A stretch of DNA of 15,355 nucleotides. Source: Promethearchaeota archaeon. GTDB lineage: Archaea > Asgardarchaeota > Lokiarchaeia > Sigyniarchaeales > SOKP01. The position numbers were made by a program, and so were the translations under genes. Every line of letters begins with the position of its first letter. The first letter of the stretch is position 1. The stretch covers positions 1-15,355 of the forward strand of contig RDOE01000076.1 in assembly GCA_011364975.1 (NCBI GenBank), given 5' to 3'. Of this stretch, positions 95 to 15,355 are shown one piece after another. The notes beneath the pieces are model-generated. The model was given only the letters and a program-made list of their open reading frames with translations, was not told where the DNA came from and ran no database searches.

Positions 95-177
95 TTTGAA
101 GAATCTTAGAAAAATCAAATAAAAAAATCTATTGTAATTAAATCAAAAAAAAGAGAGTAATAAAAATTATAAAAATA

Positions 178-183
178 GGGTGA
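178..183 (+). promoter_or_regulatory. Shine-Dalgarno-like site GGGTGA
   Basis: It ends 6 nt before ATG 190 and matches the GGTGA part of the archaeal SD consensus GGAGGTGA. Confidence 0.6.
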
Positions 184-189
184 GAGAAA

Positions 190-1332
190 ATGGTGGAATC
201 AAATGATATATATAGGAAATTACAGCAGCATATCGACGAGCGTATGCCTGTAGGCTTCCCGAGGAGTGAGTCTGGTGCTGATTTAAGAATCTTAAAGCAT
301 CTTTTCACTCCCGAGGAAGCAGATTTAGTATTGTATTTAAGCGCCTTACCTGAACCTGTTGAACGCGTCTATAAGCGTGTTAAACATACTGGTATAACTA
401 TGGAAGAATTGGAACAAAGATTAGATTCTTTAGTCAAAAGGGGATTAATTATGGGTGGAAGTTTCAACGATCCCAATAAAAAGACATATAGCACCGCCCA
501 ATATGCAATTGGGATGTTTGAATTTCAAGTAGATAAGCTTTATAAAGAATTGGTCCAGGATGCGGATGAGTACAATAAATCTGTATTTTACAAGGAATTT
601 TATAGGCCAAATATTCCTAATCAAATGCGAACCATTCCTGTAGAAAAGAGCGTTGTTCCAGAACATCATATCAGTACATATGATAATGTAGCTAAACTTT
701 TGGAAAATGCTGAGGAACCAATCGTAATACTGAACTGTGTCTGTAAACAAGGAAAGCAGGTATTAGGGGGGTCTTGTAATGTTACAGACATACCTGATAC
801 ATGTATGGGATTTGGAAGTTTGGGAGCAGGTTACTTAGAGTTAGGATCTGGTCGTATGGTTAGCAAAGATGAAGCATTGGAACGTTTAAAGAAATATCAA
901 GAACTTGGGTTAGTACTTCAGCCTAATAATTCACAAGACTCCGGATTTATTTGTGCGTGTTGTGGCGATTGTTGTCAAAATTTGCTTATGGTAAAACAAT
1001 TTCCTCGTCCAGCGGATTACTTCACATCAAATTTCCACGCTATAGTAGATGCTGATGTATGCGAAGGGTGTGGTACTTGTGTTGAACGGTGTCAGATGGG
1101 AGCTGTAACGCTTGTTAACGATATAGCAGCCATCAATTATGACCGTTGTATTGGCTGCGGTAATTGTGTCGTTACCTGCAAATCGGGAGCAATTCAACTC
1201 GAGAAGAACGAAAAGGAAAAAGTACCTCCGAAAGATTTCAACGCACTTCTACAGAAAATAATGATAAAGAAACGAGGGTTCATAGGGTCAATGAAAATGA
1301 TGGGCAAAATGCTCTTAAAAAAACAAATTTAA
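190..1332 (+). CDS. Fe-S protein: N-terminal HTH-like region, central Cys-rich domain and C-terminal 2x[4Fe-4S] ferredoxin domain
   Basis: C-terminal motifs CEGCGTCVERC and CIGCGNCVVTC; central CVC...C...C and ICACCGDCC; N-terminal 'LFTPEEA...LEQRLDSLVKRGLI' winged-helix-like segment. Confidence 0.85.
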   Translation: MVESNDIYRKLQQHIDERMPVGFPRSESGADLRILKHLFTPEEADLVLYLSALPEPVERVYKRVKHTGITMEELEQRLDSLVKRGLIMGGSFNDPNKKTYSTAQYAIGMFEFQVDKLYKELVQDADEYNKSVFYKEFYRPNIPNQMRTIPVEKSVVPEHHISTYDNVAKLLENAEEPIVILNCVCKQGKQVLGGSCNVTDIPDTCMGFGSLGAGYLELGSGRMVSKDEALERLKKYQELGLVLQPNNSQDSGFICACCGDCCQNLLMVKQFPRPADYFTSNFHAIVDADVCEGCGTCVERCQMGAVTLVNDIAAINYDRCIGCGNCVVTCKSGAIQLEKNEKEKVPPKDFNALLQKIMIKKRGFIGSMKMMGKMLLKKQI

Positions 1333-1547: not shown

Positions 1548-3233
1548 ATGTCAGATGAAGAGAAAAAGGAAAATCTCGGTCAAGAAAATCCTGTTGGTCG
1601 GTTAATGGGAAAGACTACTACTTATGAAGTGTCAATGCAAGTTACTGACCCAAATGTCTTGAGAAACACGTATTTGACAATTTATGGCGAAAAGGATAAA
1701 GAGGGTAAACGACCTCATTATATGTTAAATATTACAGATATGTATAGCGATTCTTCAGGAATGGTCGCGAACTTAATGGTACTAGGAGAGCGACCTAAAC
1801 GACCTTTTGAGGTCGGAGCCGAGGTATATAAAGCAAAAGAGGAACAAATTGAAAGATTATTAGGAATCCATAATCCGCCAGAAGAGTCGGTTTCATTAGG
1901 AAAATTAATTGGATATCCTTTTAATGTAAATTTACTTGTAAAAAATTTTGGGAGAATTTTTATAACAGGTAAAAGTGGCTCTGGTAAATCATATAGTATG
2001 GGTGTATTGTGTGAGGAATTCATGAAAAAAGGCATTCCAGTAGTCATTTTAGATCGCCACGGTGAATATGGTTCATTAAAAGTTGCAGCAAAAGAGCTTC
2101 AAAAAGGAGATAATAATCAGAGTGAATTTGTGGATAAAATTATAGAATTTGCTGATTTAAAGATTAATAAGGGAGGAGATATTGATGTGGAATATTTATT
2201 TTCATTAGATGCAACGGATATTGTCGCTCCGAATTTATGTACTATAGTAAATATGCGTGGAATGGATCTTACAGTACAAGAAATGATCGCGGGAAAATTG
2301 CTCAAAAAATTATATCAAGCGAGTACAAGCAGAAGAATTACACCTTTTTACTTGTTTTTAGATGAAGCCCATCTTTTTGCAGGCAAAAAGAGAACAGACA
2401 CCTGTGAAACTGTAAAATTATTTTCCCAAGAAGGCCGAAAGTTTGGTGCTAATCTAGTAATCGGTACTCAGCGTCCACAATTACTTGATACTACTATCCG
2501 TGCTCAAGCAGGAAGTTGGATCGTACATAATCTTACAGATATAAGAGATATTGATGTGACCATCTCATCTGCAGAAGATTTGAGTCGTGATAATAAGAAT
2601 GATATCTCGGGATTAGATAAAGGAGAATGTATCGTTTGCGGTGAAGCAGTAAAAGGAATTCCGCTGTTTGTTAAAGTTCGACCAAGATTAACTGAACACG
2701 GTGGAATTGGATTTAATCCACTAGACTTTCTACCAAAACAAACTATCGATGAATTACAGAAGCGTAAGCAACGTATTCTTGGTGATAAGTCCGCAAATGA
2801 ATTGGAAACAGGAAAAACTATCTATCAAGAAATTACCGCACCAAAAACATCTGATGAATATTTAGATGAGATTGCAGAATTAAGATTGAAGATAAAAGAA
2901 CTAGAAGATGAAATTTCTATTTTAAAAGAAAAATTAACTAAGGTTGAAGAGGGTGTTCCAACTTCCACAAGTGAAATAACTTTCGATGATCATGTAGAAG
3001 ATCTTGAGACAGAACTTAAAGTGTGGCAAGAAAAGTATAATTACCTCAAAGAATCGATGGAAAATCAAGATTTTATGGGGGGATCTGAGGGTGAATCAAG
3101 CGAACTTATCTTGGATATGCAAAATAAAACTATTGAATTAGAAGCAGAAGTTCAGAAATTTAAATCACGATATACAGACGCATTAATTTTAGCTGAAAAA
3201 GCTATTAATGAATTGAAAAGAAGGTCCAAATGA
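1548..3233 (+). CDS. HerA/FtsK-superfamily (DUF87) P-loop ATPase with a putative N-terminal HAS-barrel and a C-terminal coiled-coil extension
   Basis: Walker A GKSGSGKS (1968-1991), HerA-type ILDRHGEY, Walker B FLFLDEAH (DEAH 2361-2372), Arg-finger EGRKFG and GTQRP. The N-terminus is beta-rich and the tail from ~aa 435 is acidic with heptad periodicity. Confidence 0.88.
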   Translation: MSDEEKKENLGQENPVGRLMGKTTTYEVSMQVTDPNVLRNTYLTIYGEKDKEGKRPHYMLNITDMYSDSSGMVANLMVLGERPKRPFEVGAEVYKAKEEQIERLLGIHNPPEESVSLGKLIGYPFNVNLLVKNFGRIFITGKSGSGKSYSMGVLCEEFMKKGIPVVILDRHGEYGSLKVAAKELQKGDNNQSEFVDKIIEFADLKINKGGDIDVEYLFSLDATDIVAPNLCTIVNMRGMDLTVQEMIAGKLLKKLYQASTSRRITPFYLFLDEAHLFAGKKRTDTCETVKLFSQEGRKFGANLVIGTQRPQLLDTTIRAQAGSWIVHNLTDIRDIDVTISSAEDLSRDNKNDISGLDKGECIVCGEAVKGIPLFVKVRPRLTEHGGIGFNPLDFLPKQTIDELQKRKQRILGDKSANELETGKTIYQEITAPKTSDEYLDEIAELRLKIKELEDEISILKEKLTKVEEGVPTSTSEITFDDHVEDLETELKVWQEKYNYLKESMENQDFMGGSEGESSELILDMQNKTIELEAEVQKFKSRYTDALILAEKAINELKRRSK

Positions 3234-7699: not shown

Positions 7700-8071
7700 A
7701 TGTCAAGTACAAAGGGTTATCTTTGGAGTTTGACTTTTTTTTTAACAGCAGCTATATATGGTTCAATTCCAACCTATTTGATTGTAACCTTTTGGCAATG
7801 GTTAAATTCTCTTACGTTCGATGGGGAACCAATATATACTCTGACTTTATTTGTGCTTTTTATGTGGATAATATCATTAATTGTCACATTAATTTATTTA
7901 GTTGCGATGGTACGAGCAATTATTCAAAGAAAGAATGAAGATTTGGGAATTCCTAAAGGTGTGAAATATTTTGGACTGGTTTCTACTCTAATAATAGTAG
8001 GATTTATGATTGTATGGTTTATCTTGTTTCAGCAAATTGCTTTTTTCTCAATGACGCGTCCAATATTATGA
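7700..8071 (+). CDS. Small hypothetical membrane protein (3 predicted TM helices)
   Basis: 123 aa with an ATG start and three long hydrophobic stretches separated by short polar loops (FDGEP, RKNEDLGIPKG). It fills an otherwise empty interval. Confidence 0.75.
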   Translation: MSSTKGYLWSLTFFLTAAIYGSIPTYLIVTFWQWLNSLTFDGEPIYTLTLFVLFMWIISLIVTLIYLVAMVRAIIQRKNEDLGIPKGVKYFGLVSTLIIVGFMIVWFILFQQIAFFSMTRPIL

Positions 8072-11762: not shown

Positions 11763-11773
11763 AAAAAAAAAAA
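11763..11773 (-). terminator. Oligo-T (T11 on - strand) terminator
   Basis: A11 on the + strand directly abuts the TAA (11774-11776) of the 747-aa gene. Confidence 0.7.
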
Positions 11774-14017
11774 TTAAAGATCTAATTTTTGTTTCCAAAA
11801 ATTAAGTTTCATTTTCAAGTCTTCCTTCTCGGGGAGACTTAGAACATAAGTTTTACTTCTTAAATTGATACTAGTATTATGCATATTCTTTAAGACACTA
11901 TTATACCCTGCTTTATTTACGTATTCACTTTGAAATTTTTCTAATGCTGTTGATATCTCTAATCCTGTAAGGGTCTCAATCCCATCCATTATTAAATTAA
12001 ATTGTTTTGATAAGATACCTTTTGCGTCTTCTGAAATGGTCTTTGGTATTACTTTTTCCTCAGAGGGAGGGACTTCTGGTTGGGGAGATGTTATGATTTT
12101 TGGTTCATGAACTGCAGGTTGTAATTTCACAGGTTCTAATTTCACGGGTTCTATTGGAGGTTGTGAAGGGATAGGTTCTTCTTTTCCAAGGGACGATTTT
12201 ATAGATTGCATAACATCTTTTCTTGAAGACATCCAAGCTTCTTCAAGTATCGGTACAAATATTTTTATGTGTTCTTCAATAATACTTCCAATTCCCGCTA
12301 TTTCCGTTATTAAATCACCTTTAATTTCCGTTGTTGATAACACACAGACGATAACTTCCTCATAATCTCTATTGATGCCCCATAAATTCTGTAAACCTCT
12401 TTGGCGATAATCAACATTAACCATTTTATCTAGTTGCTGAACGATTGCAGCATGTTGGGGATCTGAAAAGTTAATACTTGTAGCGATTCTAAAATTAATT
12501 CTAGCAGGGCGCTCCATAATTGCTTTAAGATTTATATCAGTTATTTGAGGGGTAACAATTAACACTCGCATCTTGGCTTTTGATATTTGTTCATCGATAT
12601 GAGCTTTAGCACTTTCAGGAGATCTTATAAACCAAATATCTTTCATCGTAATTGATTTTCCTGTTTTAGCTTGATCCCAGAATTCATTCGTGACTTTTTC
12701 AGATACTTCTAATTTTTTTAAAATATCACTCAAAGTATTATCTAAGGTTGCAACAATTTGATTAGAAAAAAGGTCTTTCAAATTTCCAAAAGATTCAAAA
12801 GCAGTTCCAGAAATACCATCAATTTTTTCTTCCGCCATTTTTACTGCTTTATTGAAGTTTTGAGCAAGATCTGCAAAGATTTTCTCCTTATCTTGATCTG
12901 CTTTTGAAGTTAATCCATCAATACTTTTCATAGTATTTTGCAGAGAATCCTTTAGTTTAGTAATCGTATCAGAATCTATGCCTGTTGCCATTTTTTTTAC
13001 TTCATCAGCAAAAGCTACTTGACTTACGCTTAATTGAACATTAATATTATCAGTAATATCTTTTAATTTCGAATTAATTACCTTTTCGATTACTTGATCG
13101 ACAGTTTGTTGAATTACACCTAATCTTAATTTTTGTAAATTGTCAGAAACGGTCGATTTGATATTTGTAAATTCATTTTTAAGGTCTTGAATCTGTCCTT
13201 TAATTATACTAGATGTTTTTTGATTAATATTTTCAAATTGTTTCTTTAAATCATCCATTTGGGGAGTCATTAACGATTGGGTATAACCTTCAATATTAGA
13301 GATTTCACTGGTGATACCTTTGATTTGATCCATAACTGCTAAGGTATCATCGAATTCCTTTTTCTGAGATTTAATCTGGGTTAGCATATTATCCTTTAAT
13401 TCTTTCATTAATTCAGCGGGTACTTTTGGTTTTTCCACTTTTCCTGATTCAGATTCAAGTTGTCTAAAAGATTTTTCTAGCTGAGCAGGAATGGTTGATT
13501 TTATATCAGAGATGTATTTATGAAATTTTTGAAGTTGACTTACTAAAGCGGCATATGGTGGTAAAGCCGTGTAATGCGGTTGGGCACCAACAATTTCTTT
13601 AAAAAGTCCTTTTTCAACGAACTTTTTAGCTGTTCGAGTACATTCTTCCTTAGTTTTTCCCGTTAAGATTGCCATCTCTCCAATTGAGACCGCTTCACGA
13701 CCAGTAGTTCGAAAGTATAACTCTATTTCACTATCAGACAAATCGATTTCACTTAAGACTTGTCTAGTTAGCTCTTCAGAATAATGCACTTCTTCTTTTT
13801 TAAGAATTTCCTTGACTTCAAAATTTTCAATTTCTAGATATTGGTTAAAGAACACGATTAACTTGTGCTCGGGATCACCATGAATCGATTCCTTCTTAAG
13901 AGGAAATTTTGTTAGGCCTTGATATTCGGTTTTTAAAATCTTAAAGGGTATTTTCTTTAAGCATAATTTACAGGTGTATGGAATTTCTACTTCTTGTTTA
14001 TCTTTAAATAGGTACAT
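11774..14017 (-). CDS. Giant multidomain TrmB-like protein: C2H2-type Zn domain, TrmB wHTH, long amphipathic helical insert, TrmB effector/PLD-like domain, Pro-rich linker and helical C-domain
   Basis: C16xxC19...H46GDPEH51. Residues 88-154 'LSEIDLSDSEIELY...SIGEMAILTG...KFVEKGLF..IVGAQPHYTALPP' fit the TrmB HTH pattern. Residues ~460-595 'IWFIRS...ISKAKMRVLIVTP...INRDYEEVIV...EEAW' fit the TrmB effector domain pattern. Confidence 0.78.
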   Translation of the reverse strand: MYLFKDKQEVEIPYTCKLCLKKIPFKILKTEYQGLTKFPLKKESIHGDPEHKLIVFFNQYLEIENFEVKEILKKEEVHYSEELTRQVLSEIDLSDSEIELYFRTTGREAVSIGEMAILTGKTKEECTRTAKKFVEKGLFKEIVGAQPHYTALPPYAALVSQLQKFHKYISDIKSTIPAQLEKSFRQLESESGKVEKPKVPAELMKELKDNMLTQIKSQKKEFDDTLAVMDQIKGITSEISNIEGYTQSLMTPQMDDLKKQFENINQKTSSIIKGQIQDLKNEFTNIKSTVSDNLQKLRLGVIQQTVDQVIEKVINSKLKDITDNINVQLSVSQVAFADEVKKMATGIDSDTITKLKDSLQNTMKSIDGLTSKADQDKEKIFADLAQNFNKAVKMAEEKIDGISGTAFESFGNLKDLFSNQIVATLDNTLSDILKKLEVSEKVTNEFWDQAKTGKSITMKDIWFIRSPESAKAHIDEQISKAKMRVLIVTPQITDINLKAIMERPARINFRIATSINFSDPQHAAIVQQLDKMVNVDYRQRGLQNLWGINRDYEEVIVCVLSTTEIKGDLITEIAGIGSIIEEHIKIFVPILEEAWMSSRKDVMQSIKSSLGKEEPIPSQPPIEPVKLEPVKLQPAVHEPKIITSPQPEVPPSEEKVIPKTISEDAKGILSKQFNLIMDGIETLTGLEISTALEKFQSEYVNKAGYNSVLKNMHNTSINLRSKTYVLSLPEKEDLKMKLNFWKQKLDL
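12122..12151. repeat. 15-bp tandem duplication encoding EPVKL x2 in the Pro-rich linker
   Basis: TAATTTCACAGGTTC followed by TAATTTCACGGGTTC (1 mismatch). Confidence 0.85.
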
Positions 14018-14022
14018 TTTAT

Positions 14023-14030
14023 ATCATCAC
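14023..14030 (-). promoter_or_regulatory. SD-like GTGATGAT upstream of ATG 14017
   Basis: The minus strand reads GTGATGATATAAAATG within a 31-nt intergenic gap, consistent with co-transcription with the upstream gene. Confidence 0.5.
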
Positions 14031-14048
14031 TTTAAAATTAAATTCTAA

Positions 14049-15305
14049 TTAAAAAATAACTTTTTCTGGATATGAAACTTCTAATAAGTTTAATGCTTTC
14101 TTAGCAACTTCATAGGAGATTTTACCATCTCCATCTTCACTGCGATATGCTTCTCTTATTTTGGGTAATAAATATTCTGGGAAAATAGTTAATGGTTTAA
14201 GATCTGTCAATAAACATATCCAACTTCGTTTATTTTCGTCTTTTATCTCAGTAATAATGTTTAATTTCTTCAAATTGTCAAGTAAAATCTCAGTTACTGC
14301 AAATTCAGAAAAAATCTTAGGGATTTTATCAAGAGGATAATGATTTGAGCGCATGAGAACAAAAAAGTCATAAACATCGGGATTGAGTAATATCGCAGCC
14401 AATTTTTTTGTATCTTCAACACTTTCAGCATAAGGATCATATGTAGAGAAAAAATCTATTGTTTTTTGCTTAAAGAATGGTAATAATTCATTATTTGTGT
14501 CTTTAAAGTGTTTTAGAAGATTTTCATTAGGGATCCTAGTAAACATAATATCTTTAACTAAAAATAAATATTCACCTTGATTTTTAATAACCCCCGTTTT
14601 CTTATCTTTCTCACCCTTAATCCAATCGCGACGGACAAGGTTGAGCTCCAAGAATGGGCGTATTAATATATCAATATTAGCCATTGGTTTCATTTTTTCA
14701 ACAATCTTTTTCATCTCATTCTTGGCAACAGGATTTTCCCTTAGCGTCTCTAAAATCCTTAAACGCTCATCACTGTTATAAATTAAGGCAACCTTCTGTA
14801 ATTTATCTAATTGGCTTAATCGTTCTACTTGAAAGATCGTATATTTTAATTCATTCATTAAGCGAATATTTACATTTGAGATTAAATCTAATTGTCTAGT
14901 ATTCGCAGCCTTTGTGAGTTTATCAAAAATATTGTCTAATCTTTTTGCCATATCTTTTATCAAATCTTCAAAAAGCTCGATTTCATCATCTAATTCAAAA
15001 AGAGAAAGGGTTAAATATTGAGTGCCATCCGCTAATTGTCTGAAATAAGATAAAACTTGATATGGAGTTTCTCTTAATCTTCCTGCATAAAAGTTACTAA
15101 AACCATATTTCATGCCAAAGACACCAGTAGTATGTTGATAAAACGTTGCGAAAATGTCGTTTTCTACTATTAAACCAGAATAATTAGGTTCATTAAATTC
15201 TTCATTTTGAAATATTAATTGAATGGGACTGAATTCTGGATTAATTTCACCGGTATCTTCCTTTTGATTAATTTTAAATTGAAATGTCAAAATTCCTTGA
15301 ATCAA
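14049..15305 (-). CDS. Hypothetical protein: putative longin/uDENN-like N-domain plus two tandem winged-helix repeats
   Basis: 418-aa ORF with a TTG start, GAGG 9 nt upstream (15315-15318) and an in-frame upstream TAG, so it is complete. Three short beta-like segments and a long amphipathic helix lie at ~aa 70-135, and aa ~171-270 and ~301-385 are internal duplicates. The CDS is secure; the domain calls are inference. Confidence 0.65.
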   Translation of the reverse strand: MIQGILTFQFKINQKEDTGEINPEFSPIQLIFQNEEFNEPNYSGLIVENDIFATFYQHTTGVFGMKYGFSNFYAGRLRETPYQVLSYFRQLADGTQYLTLSLFELDDEIELFEDLIKDMAKRLDNIFDKLTKAANTRQLDLISNVNIRLMNELKYTIFQVERLSQLDKLQKVALIYNSDERLRILETLRENPVAKNEMKKIVEKMKPMANIDILIRPFLELNLVRRDWIKGEKDKKTGVIKNQGEYLFLVKDIMFTRIPNENLLKHFKDTNNELLPFFKQKTIDFFSTYDPYAESVEDTKKLAAILLNPDVYDFFVLMRSNHYPLDKIPKIFSEFAVTEILLDNLKKLNIITEIKDENKRSWICLLTDLKPLTIFPEYLLPKIREAYRSEDGDGKISYEVAKKALNLLEVSYPEKVIF

Positions 15306-15355
15306 TTTGATTTGCCTCTAATACTCTTATAAGTAAATTTATTTAACTAATATAT

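Follow-up and report, generated by a model that had tools for sequence, protein, structure and literature searches.

A longin-winged-helix protein and a TrmB-derived stalk protein encoded side by side in Asgard archaea: a conserved gene pair with surface-protein neighbours and a possible adaptor role

The gene pair considered here lies on the minus strand of a 15,355-nt stretch of DNA from a Promethearchaeota archaeon (assembly GCA_011364975.1, contig RDOE01000076.1), referred to below as the window, which is one whole contig (C179) of a 3.74-Mb, 200-contig genome and has a G+C content of about 30-35%. Gene A encodes a protein with a longin domain and two winged helices, and gene B, which follows it, a multidomain helical protein derived from the TrmB family. 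The two genes are conserved as a unit in much of their order and, in relatives with longer contigs, are flanked by genes of large surface proteins that share a motif just behind their transmembrane (TM) helix, which suggests an adaptor module and not a plain two-gene regulator.

The locus and its two proteins

The features of the pair are given below by their positions in the window; domain boundaries rely on AlphaFold2 (AF2) models, on structural comparison with VIA and on profile searches, and the likeness of two sites to Shine-Dalgarno (SD) sequences was judged by eye.

15306..15355, minus strand: 5' leader of A; the contig end falls inside a conserved TATA-like promoter block
15315-15319: SD-like AGAGG upstream of the TTG of A
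14049..15305, minus strand: gene A, 418 aa, TTG start; longin domain and two winged helices
14811..15305, minus strand: A residues 1-165, longin domain, b-b-a-b-b-b-a-a topology (AF2)
14529..14810, minus strand: A residues 166-259, first winged helix (winged helix 1), of net basic charge; its wing, RRDWIKGxKDKKTG, is conserved
14181..14528, minus strand: A residues 260-375, second winged-helix-like domain, helix and hairpin topology (AF2)
14018..14048, minus strand: A-B spacer, 31 nt, with no T-run longer than 4
14024-14030: SD-like GTGATGA upstream of the ATG of B
11774..14017, minus strand: gene B, 747 aa, ATG start; TrmB-derived multidomain helical protein
13802..14017, minus strand: B residues 1-72, beta-rich zinc-ribbon-like domain, C16-x2-C19...H46-x4-H51
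13562..13798, minus strand: B residues 74-152, TrmB-type winged helix-turn-helix (HTH), from a profile match to TrmB 3qph of the Protein Data Bank (PDB)
12662..13561, minus strand: B residues 153-452, ALPPY linker and helical stalk of ~300 residues, an insertion relative to TrmB
12218..12646, minus strand: B residues 458-600, phospholipase D (PLD)-like pseudo-enzyme alpha/beta domain, the most conserved part of B
12038..12217, minus strand: B residues 601-660, Pro-rich disordered tether, predicted local distance difference test score (pLDDT) 31-49 (AF2)
11777..12037, minus strand: B residues 661-747, bundle of four helices similar to the C-terminal domain of Vps28 (VIA)
11763..11773, minus strand: T11 tract, beginning at the base after the TAA of B

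An earlier reading made from the letters alone (the sequence-only reading) had described two co-oriented genes 31 nt apart, each with an SD-like site and closed by a T11 tract at the second stop, and had taken them to be co-transcribed and parted by this tract from downstream metabolic genes. The reading frames and signals were found as described, with genes for metallo-beta-lactamase-fold, FAD-binding and uroporphyrinogen-decarboxylase (URO-D)-like proteins following B on the same strand. Archaeal RNA polymerase terminates at oligo-T, and the T11 tract is likely a terminator of this kind. The spacer between A and B measures 11-38 nt and holds no T-run longer than 4 in 20 loci of the genus, and a run of 5-11 T lies within 40 nt after the stop of B in 17 of the 18 genus loci that could be assessed. 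Together, the short spacer devoid of a T-run and the T-run that follows B fit a single transcript, and, judging from these signals, A and B are probably transcribed as one unit ending at oligo-T within the genus. A 266-nt contig inside B (12558-12823), from one 'metatranscriptomic' run that is probably of DNA, does not address co-transcription.

Relatives number 593 for A and 450 for B at E<=0.001, the named ones being in both cases 'hypothetical protein' entries of metagenome-assembled genomes of Promethearchaeota/Lokiarchaeota, and neither protein has a significant family in Pfam or NCBIfam. Weak coiled-coil matches in family libraries (Prominin, CheZ and others) were set aside as compositional. 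For A, the Pfam models NPR2, NPR3 and Folliculin gave no match at E<=1 in 23 family members, and its profile reached nothing below E 0.2 among PDB sequences.

The AF2 model of A, built on 23 sequences, has a pLDDT of 87.8 and a predicted template modelling score (pTM) of 0.78. Its N-terminal domain comprises a five-stranded sheet (residues 2-14, 21-32, 69-76, 82-90 and 96-104) and three helices (48-59, 109-135 and 139-164), with pLDDT mostly above 85. In VIA, this domain matches Lst4 (Z 12.7, root-mean-square deviation (rmsd) 2.8, 132 residues aligned), the Loki Roadblock-Longin protein 8yqg (Z 12.4), FLCN (Z 12.0-12.3), SMCR8/C9orf72 (Z 12.0), the GATOR1 chains (Z 10.7-11.5, rmsd about 3.0 over about 130 residues) and the longins of SNAREs, TRAPP and AP-sigma (Z 9-10.8), and more than 40 entries within the top 50 of the fold search are longins. 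Model and fold searches thus confirm, at the level of predicted structure, a longin of the FLCN/Lst4/NPRL2/SMCR8 type. Winged helix 1 resembles the ArsR-like SrnR (Z 9.8) and winged helices of the ArsR/MecI/Phr type (Z 8.0-8.5); its wing is almost invariant, and its net charge is +2 to +10 in paralogous sets 1 and 2 (defined below) and in other families, and -2 to -4 in set 3. The second winged helix is covered only by matches spanning residues 166..374 and 167..354, never alone. ESCRT-II, NPRL C-terminal domains and further families are not among the matches listed for the winged helices of A, which is uninformative, since longin matches fill the lists.

In longins of GTPase-activating proteins (GAPs), strand 2 begins with a GP motif, next to which stands an invariant arginine finger (Traffic 2025, PMC12290439). 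A has neither: its consensus reads TGEIxPEF, with G and P three residues apart, and set 3 has neither residue; the only invariant columns in residues 1-161 are M1, H58, L77 and S86; and position 76 is arginine in 23 of 26 diverse rows, with a majority fraction of only 0.4-0.5 among 121 close orthologs. As both determinants are lacking, GAP activity is unlikely on sequence grounds, and we read A as a platform-type longin protein, not a catalytic GAP.

When considered from the point of view of domain architecture, A has the order found in NPRL2 and NPRL3 (yeast Npr2/Npr3; GATOR1/SEACIT), which combine an N-terminal longin with two or more winged HTH repeats (Levine et al. 2013, PMC3747258). A would resemble them also as a cytoplasmic protein that works at membranes with small GTPases. 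However, it differs from them in lacking an NPR2/NPR3 Pfam match, the GP motif and the invariant arginine, in that only its longin part superposes rigidly, in that no DEPDC5-like partner was seen for it, and in having surface proteins and a TrmB-like protein as genomic partners. The best matches of its N-domain belong to FLCN-FNIP/Lst7-Lst4, C9orf72-SMCR8 and 8yqg (Z 12.0-12.7 over 132-152 residues). FLCN/Lst4/SMCR8-class longins are dimers that act as GTPase platforms; in these proteins, DENN or roadblock modules stand where A has winged helices, and A is without catalytic GAP motifs.

The AF2 model of B is moderate as a whole (pLDDT 70.8, pTM 0.30) and good in its globular parts. Foldseek, run on the whole model, places TrmBL2 first (5bpd, E 2.1e-8), followed by PLD-fold proteins and TrmB (E 2.8e-5), and the family profile reaches residues 7-127 of TrmB 3qph at E 6.4e-4. 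The HTH domain gives Z 10-11 against winged-helix domains in VIA, and PF01978 aligns with it in full length (positions 1-67) at only 11.9 bits (E 0.72, cut-off 25.6). B has the order of TrmB and TrmBL2, namely winged HTH, dimerisation (coiled-coil) helix and PLD-like domain, and like TrmBL2 lacks the C-terminal beta-barrel subdomain. In contrast to these proteins, it has about 300 extra helical residues between HTH and PLD-like domain, an N-terminal C2H2 domain, a Pro-rich tether and a C-terminal four-helix bundle; it falls below the PF01978 cut-off with a poorly conserved recognition helix, and it is encoded with a longin protein and surface proteins. 'TrmB-derived' is therefore the right term for B, a TrmBL2-like core with about 300 inserted helical residues and three added modules.

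The first of these modules, the zinc-ribbon-like domain, carries C16 and C19 in the stretch that connects strands 1 and 2 of the model and H46 and H51 in that connecting strands 3 and 4, a layout that matches C2H2 ligands. Of 121 close orthologs, 120 keep C16, C19 and H46 and all keep H51. The domain is absent from set 3 and from genus g2; among the 13 diverse rows in which it is present, the ligands recur in 11-12. A Zn domain is thus plausible as a prediction. The stalk helices (about residues 155-452) have pLDDT values of 50-65, and their VIA matches, helical bundles and MxB/dynamin stalks, are non-specific. The PLD-like domain has a conservation of 0.91 and matches the sugar-binding domain of TrmB (2f5t, Z 14.9), 3qph (Z 14.2), NucT (Z 13.8; Foldseek E 3.6e-6), FAM83B (Z 12.9), Nuc (Z 12.2) and Zucchini (Z 10.1-10.8). 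In the place of the catalytic HxKx4D it carries N544-x-W546-x4-D551, invariant in 121 orthologs, with G577-S578 also kept; the placement of the motif on that strand is inferred. B resembles in this respect the DUF1669/PLD-like pseudo-enzymes of the FAM83 family, which likewise have a PLD fold without the HKD catalytic residues. The PLD-like domain of FAM83 proteins serves as a protein-docking module. No sequence relationship links them to B, whose closest PLD-like relative is the effector domain of TrmB.

Finally, beyond the Pro-rich tether (conservation 0.52), B ends in a four-helix bundle that aligns with the yeast Vps28 C-terminal domain (2j9u_A) at Z 12.4 and rmsd 2.0 over 87 of 94 residues, although for helical bundles a VIA Z under about 13 may mean only a common arrangement. 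Sequence methods do not confirm the likeness, which stays a lead from structural modelling: PF03997 (Vps28-C) did not match B in 41 genomes, though it found genuine Vps28 and a protein on contig C162; hhalign, comparing it with 21 Asgard Vps28-C sequences, gave 23% for an in-register match of 34 columns; a PDB profile search returned no Vps28; and the ESM Atlas gave no usable match for the domain. In being tethered by a flexible linker at the end of the protein, the bundle resembles Vps28-C and the Asgard proteins of Makarova et al. 2024 (PMC10936438), which join this domain to others of the longin, HTH/PCI, Ig-like and adaptin-appendage kinds, and it differs in that the invariant Trp sits in helix 4 in this genus. 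The domain is modular, as it also ends a 204-aa protein of the same genome (G000:C4:10264-10890; L006:1501-2112), 33% identical to the C-terminal 95 residues of B. This genome encodes a genuine Vps28, and a 599-aa open reading frame (ORF) on C162 (L067:7-1803) combines winged helices of the E3-UFM1-ligase/PCI/DDRGK type, a weak adaptin-C2 match and a genuine Vps28-C domain; it belongs to the Asgard multidomain kind described in PMC10936438.

As to the folds, the sequence-only reading fared well. It had proposed a longin-like N-domain, three winged HTH domains (two fall in A and one in B), a TrmB origin and a long helical stalk for B, all of which agree with the models and searches, and its remark that catalytic motifs are lacking is borne out by the NxWx4D in the PLD-like domain. 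For its Zn domain, the conserved ligands make the proposal plausible, and metal binding itself is predicted only.

Conservation of the pair and its surface-protein neighbours

The pair was followed in 41 genomes, comprising the window's own, 24 of the same genus and 16 from three other families of the order, with adjacency counted from match coordinates wherever B lay on the same strand within 2 kb of A. B comes after A in 53 of the 56 A loci of families f1-f3, and the genus holds three paralogous sets. In set 1, that of the window (A 75-84% identical), B follows directly in 23/23 loci. In set 2 (A' about 55%), five of six loci have B' 1.9 kb downstream, and the sixth, which is that of the own genome, sits at the edge of a contig. 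Set 3 (A'' about 35% and shortened at its N-terminus) has an adjacent B'' in 16 of 18 loci, and B'' is missing roughly the first 80 residues. Families f2 and f3 keep the pair adjacent in all nine loci. Outside set 2, the spacers measured are 0-38 nt, with the exception of one f2 locus (119 nt). This adjacency far exceeds chance, and conservation of A and B as a unit is supported. In a phylum-wide draw of 151 genomes, A-like genes were found in 97 and B-like genes in 111.

In relatives with longer contigs, the genes flanking A and B encode large proteins that are paralogous to one another and range in length from 540 to about 1,450 aa. These proteins start with a hydrophobic anchor, continue in a large ectodomain that gives weak PKD/Big_1/CarboxypepD_reg matches, and have one TM helix near the C-terminus and a basic tail. 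Such genes flank the pair in all three paralogous sets and in three families, and the sequence-only notion of a self-contained two-gene system gives way to one with a third component. In set 1, 15 of 23 loci have a divergent match to the surface-protein query within about 500 nt of A and two more have a divergent signal-anchored ORF, giving 17/23, while the remaining six, the window included, stop at contig edges. In f2 and f3, the surface gene begins 12 nt after B or overlaps it in three loci (L047, L048 and L052), and no T-run longer than 4 follows the stop of B in 9/9 loci; with its close or overlapping surface gene, the arrangement looks like one A-B-surface operon. Two closed genomes of the order, G032 and G038, have this arrangement. 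B also adjoins such a protein in G027, the only f4 genome examined.

The motif YQxx(L/F)KYPxx(V/I)RKxRKxxKx(I/L) recurs after the TM helix in every one of the 16 neighbouring surface proteins that were examined. In the window's own genome, a regular expression for the motif matched 6 of 3957 long frames, five of them right after a strong TM segment: two on contig C108 and one each on C142, C150 (at its end) and C129. Two of the five, those on C142 and C129, adjoin A-family genes. C108, 3.5 kb in all and with a first gene that runs off the contig start, is likely the continuation of the window locus, as judged from synteny alone; no sequence overlap joined the window end to another contig. In the ESM Atlas, an own surface protein matched only unnamed Promethearchaeota clusters.

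Two further loci of this genome deserve mention. On C129 (G000:C129:39-5517), the gene of a single-pass protein of 1,457 aa that bears the motif precedes a 367-aa A-like gene by 8 nt, and no B-like gene accompanies them. Contig ends divide the own set-2 locus (G000:C142:165-7048 and G000:C39:6441-7904): C142 carries A' beside a divergent 1,751-aa surface protein, and on C39 an ortholog of the roadblock-Ras GTPase described below (61% identical) runs off the contig end. No B' was found in this genome; a 562-aa gene stands at its expected place on C39, upstream of the GTPase.

The association with membrane proteins extends beyond the order. Ten A-like loci from seven other Asgard families were picked by family and contig size, with their neighbours unseen. 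In seven of them a large protein with a signal and a C-terminal TM segment is encoded within two genes of the A-like gene; in none of the ten does such a protein lie farther out within windows of 12-14 kb. Five of these seven membrane proteins carry a related motif, for instance FKYPKIIRKIR, IRFPAVVRKIM or RIPFVIKKID. The longer tails at L114, L121 and L113 (families f5 and f23) end in a second, acidic helical motif, roughly EExKxILxE(L/M)KxL(P/S)xExxxxxLExLK. In two families, a 140-161-aa protein that is winged-helix-like by eye lies between the A-like and the giant membrane-protein genes (L113:5623-6042 and L116:5308-5790), the place taken by B in the A-B-surface operons of the window's order; hhalign detects no relation of these proteins to B (0.4%), and they have no Pfam family at E<=0.01.

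Small GTPase genes recur in this company. An Arf/Ras-like GTPase gene lies near the A-like gene in three of the ten loci, directly downstream in two and at about 3 kb in the third, and in set 2 a gene for a 544-aa roadblock-Ras GTPase stands on the opposite strand between A' and B' in all five complete loci. The own genome has, on C104 (G000:C104:384-3587), a roadblock-GTPase-like gene of 328 aa next to a 727-aa ORF that runs off the contig and whose C-terminal half is A-like.

Since the membrane-protein neighbour is phylum-wide and the adjacency of B is limited to families f1-f3, the oldest and widest link is that between the A family and motif-bearing single-pass membrane proteins, with GTPases as a recurrent third party, and B is an order-specific addition that was later co-duplicated with A. 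These same observations bear on the view that only A is tied to the surface proteins, B being an unrelated gene with an independent function that became fixed beside A in one order. That view draws on the restriction of B adjacency to f1-f3, on the C129 gene with its motif-bearing neighbour and no B, on an own set-2 locus that appears to be without B', and on the opposite-strand gene that separates A' from B' in set 2. It nevertheless seems improbable, because B was duplicated with A three times and is adjacent to it in 53/56 loci, because the spacers outside set 2 are 0-38 nt in all measured loci save one, and because in f2 and f3 A, B and the surface gene appear to share an operon with B in the middle.

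A possible adaptor role and its rivals

We tentatively favour the reading that A and B form a membrane-proximal cytoplasmic adaptor or scaffold for surface proteins, possibly regulated by GTPases; it is a possible account, held with some reserve. The module would have three parts. A and B would be cytoplasmic, and the third part would be one or more giant single-pass surface proteins with a signal or anchor, an ectodomain with a membrane-proximal Ig/PKD-like domain, a TM helix and a tail that opens with KYPxx(V/I)RKxRKxxKx(I/L). A would dock at the membrane on this juxtamembrane tail, its basic, conserved winged helix 1 being the likeliest contact, and its longin domain would offer a platform to a small GTPase or to another longin/roadblock protein. 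B would dimerise through the TrmB-type helix and the expanded stalk, and its pseudo-PLD domain, zinc-ribbon-like domain and tethered Vps28-C-like bundle would be protein-binding ends, so that B could bridge or cluster A-receptor units and couple them to other machinery. The output may be the placement, clustering or turnover of surface proteins.

Apart from the gene linkage, three arguments lead to this reading. A cytoplasmic motif shared by membrane proteins needs a cytoplasmic reader; within B, the recognition helix is the least conserved structured part, at 0.78 against 0.91 for the PLD-like domain; and the tethered Vps28-C-like bundle and the pseudo-PLD domain look like interaction modules. 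Adaptor protein (AP) complexes of clathrin coats read short cytosolic sorting motifs of single-pass membrane proteins, and this serves as a working analogy for A and the juxtamembrane motif. The longin folds of AP2 sigma (Z 9.8-10.3) and AP2 mu (Z 8.8) are among the matches of A, yet the likeness concerns the working mode only, as A is no AP subunit, has no AP parts nearby and faces another motif. Asgard proteins that combine Vps28-C, longin, HTH/PCI and Ig-like domains have been proposed by Makarova et al. 2024 (PMC10936438) to have roles in the handling of cargo.

Several points weigh against the adaptor reading. It builds on folds, conservation, gene linkage, a shared motif and recurrent GTPase neighbours, which are observations; from these we infer every binding step, the part of a GTPase at the window locus and the cellular output. 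Winged helix 1 of A is net basic, so that a role at DNA is possible for it, and B retains the full TrmB core, to which such a role is likewise open; we know of no characterised member of the TrmB family that does not bind DNA. The Vps28-C likeness of B comes from a single structural match, in which a small helical bundle is compared. In family f4 the adjacency is seen in 0/4 loci, since three genomes have A and B on separate contigs and the fourth yielded no B, and in families f5, f23 and f14, outside the order, A-like and B-like genes are not neighbours; the adjacency, kept in 53/56 loci of f1-f3, thus fails in f4 and outside the order. No GTPase gene was found next to set-1 loci in the relatives examined, and the GTPase link of A is contextual. 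The set-1 promoter has a conserved palindromic block, such as a regulated or autoregulated promoter would have. Lastly, the contig ends 50 nt upstream of A, and the own surface genes cannot be joined to the window.

The promoter block is the natural starting point for the view that A and B are local transcription regulators, in which B would be a DNA-binding dimer with the PLD-like effector domain as sensor, A a co-regulator or sensor, and the own promoter and the surface genes their targets. The block is conserved in the genus about 60-110 nt upstream of the start of A (L008-L025; for instance G017:C87:68802-68829), comprises the palindromes TTAAATTTAA and CTTAAG beside a TATA-like run, and may be an operator or promoter element. 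With 0-1 mismatch, the composite motif occurs exactly once per genome in 5/5 genomes. In the own genome it is at chance level (4 matches, all with 2 mismatches, against 1 for the control); the own promoter lies beyond the contig end, and the window keeps only the last bases of the block (15350-15355). The regulator view is also served by the TrmB/TrmBL2 core of B, found by structure and by profile, by the net charge of winged helix 1 in most lineages, by the divergent orientation of the pair and the surface genes within the genus, and by the fact that each paralogous pair stands beside its own surface genes, as dedicated regulators would.

However, the recognition helix of B is the least conserved of its structured segments (0.78 against 0.84 overall in 120 orthologs) and has no conserved basic residues, its HTH is acidic to neutral (net charge -8 to +4), and PF01978 stays below its cut-off. 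The argument from charge is weak, since the genuine TrmB HTHs of the own genome reach only 0 to +6. Beyond the HTH, known TrmB regulators have no 300-residue stalk, no tethered four-helix bundle and no longin partner, A-like genes keep a membrane-protein neighbour in classes where no B is adjacent, and transcriptional control alone would not require a shared cytoplasmic motif. We consider this regulator view, the main rival of the adaptor reading, rather unlikely, though far from negligible. The adaptor and regulator readings could also be combined, in the form of a receptor-to-DNA relay.

A different output had been envisaged by the sequence-only reading, namely a complex of the two proteins linking small-GTPase or nutrient signalling to DNA or chromosome organisation, which amounts to a GATOR1/FLCN-like sensor with a TrmBL2-like chromatin output. 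On its side are the best matches of A, the longins of FLCN, Lst4, NPRL2 and SMCR8, together with an architecture equal to that of NPRL2/3; the best Foldseek match of B, the chromatin protein TrmBL2; the recurrence of GTPase genes near A-family genes; and the report by Liu et al. (bioRxiv 10.1101/2020.10.19.343400) that longin families of NPRL2-like kind occur in Asgard archaea. Yet A is without the GP motif and the invariant arginine finger, the NPR2, NPR3 and Folliculin models find nothing in its family, the set-1 loci have no GTPase gene, the features of the B HTH speak against DNA binding, and the conserved surface-protein partner and its motif are left unexplained. The GTPase part of the proposal is thus supported by gene context in the 5/5 set-2 loci and the 3/10 loci of other classes and not by set 1 or by the sequence of the longin, while nothing points to DNA or chromosome organisation, given the variable recognition helix and the charge of the domain. 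As a whole, we hold this account to be highly doubtful.

Apart from the pair, the window encodes on its plus strand a HerA/DUF87-type ATPase with a long helical C-terminal part (1548-3233), a protein with a C-terminal 2x[4Fe-4S] ferredoxin domain (190-1332) and a 123-aa ORF with no Pfam match (7700-8071) between genes for an alpha/beta-hydrolase and a URO-D-like protein.

Taken singly, the folds of A and B are familiar. Asgard archaea have already been reported to possess longin families, NPRL2-like longins and multidomain proteins with Vps28-C (PMC10936438 and bioRxiv 10.1101/2020.10.19.343400). In the literature library searched there was no description of the A-B pair, of the architecture of B or of a link between longin-winged-helix proteins and motif-bearing surface proteins, although the figures and supplements of PMC10936438 and the asCOG paper may list the families.

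Asgard genomes are rich in longin, roadblock and small-GTPase genes. In a closed Loki genome these are rarely found in operons (Tran et al. 2024, PMC10933270), so that their partners and clients cannot be guessed from gene order. The longin family described here does have a conserved genomic partner, surface proteins with a common cytoplasmic motif, joined in some lineages by GTPase genes. This offers a concrete, testable pair of client and adaptor for a 'eukaryotic signature' domain of Asgard archaea, and a candidate sorting or anchoring signal in an archaeon. Moreover, the fold of an archaeal regulator, TrmB, may have given rise here to a long scaffold whose end is ESCRT-I-like.

Were B a plain regulator, the locus would be an unusual but ordinary local regulon for surface proteins. 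If, on the other hand, the adaptor reading is right and the proposed binding true, the module would bear on the pre-eukaryotic origin of membrane-protein sorting and of GTPase platforms. A broader version, which is speculative and, in our estimation, unlikely as it stands, takes the A family to be Asgard-wide cargo or receptor adaptors that read (K/R)(Y/F/I)Pxx(I/V)(R/K)K(I/V) on surface proteins and couple them to GTPases, with a TrmB-derived stalk with an ESCRT-I-like Vps28-C end added in the Lokiarchaeales. If it were true, this family would represent a prokaryotic forerunner of the eukaryotic machinery of longin adaptors, sorting signals and GTPases.

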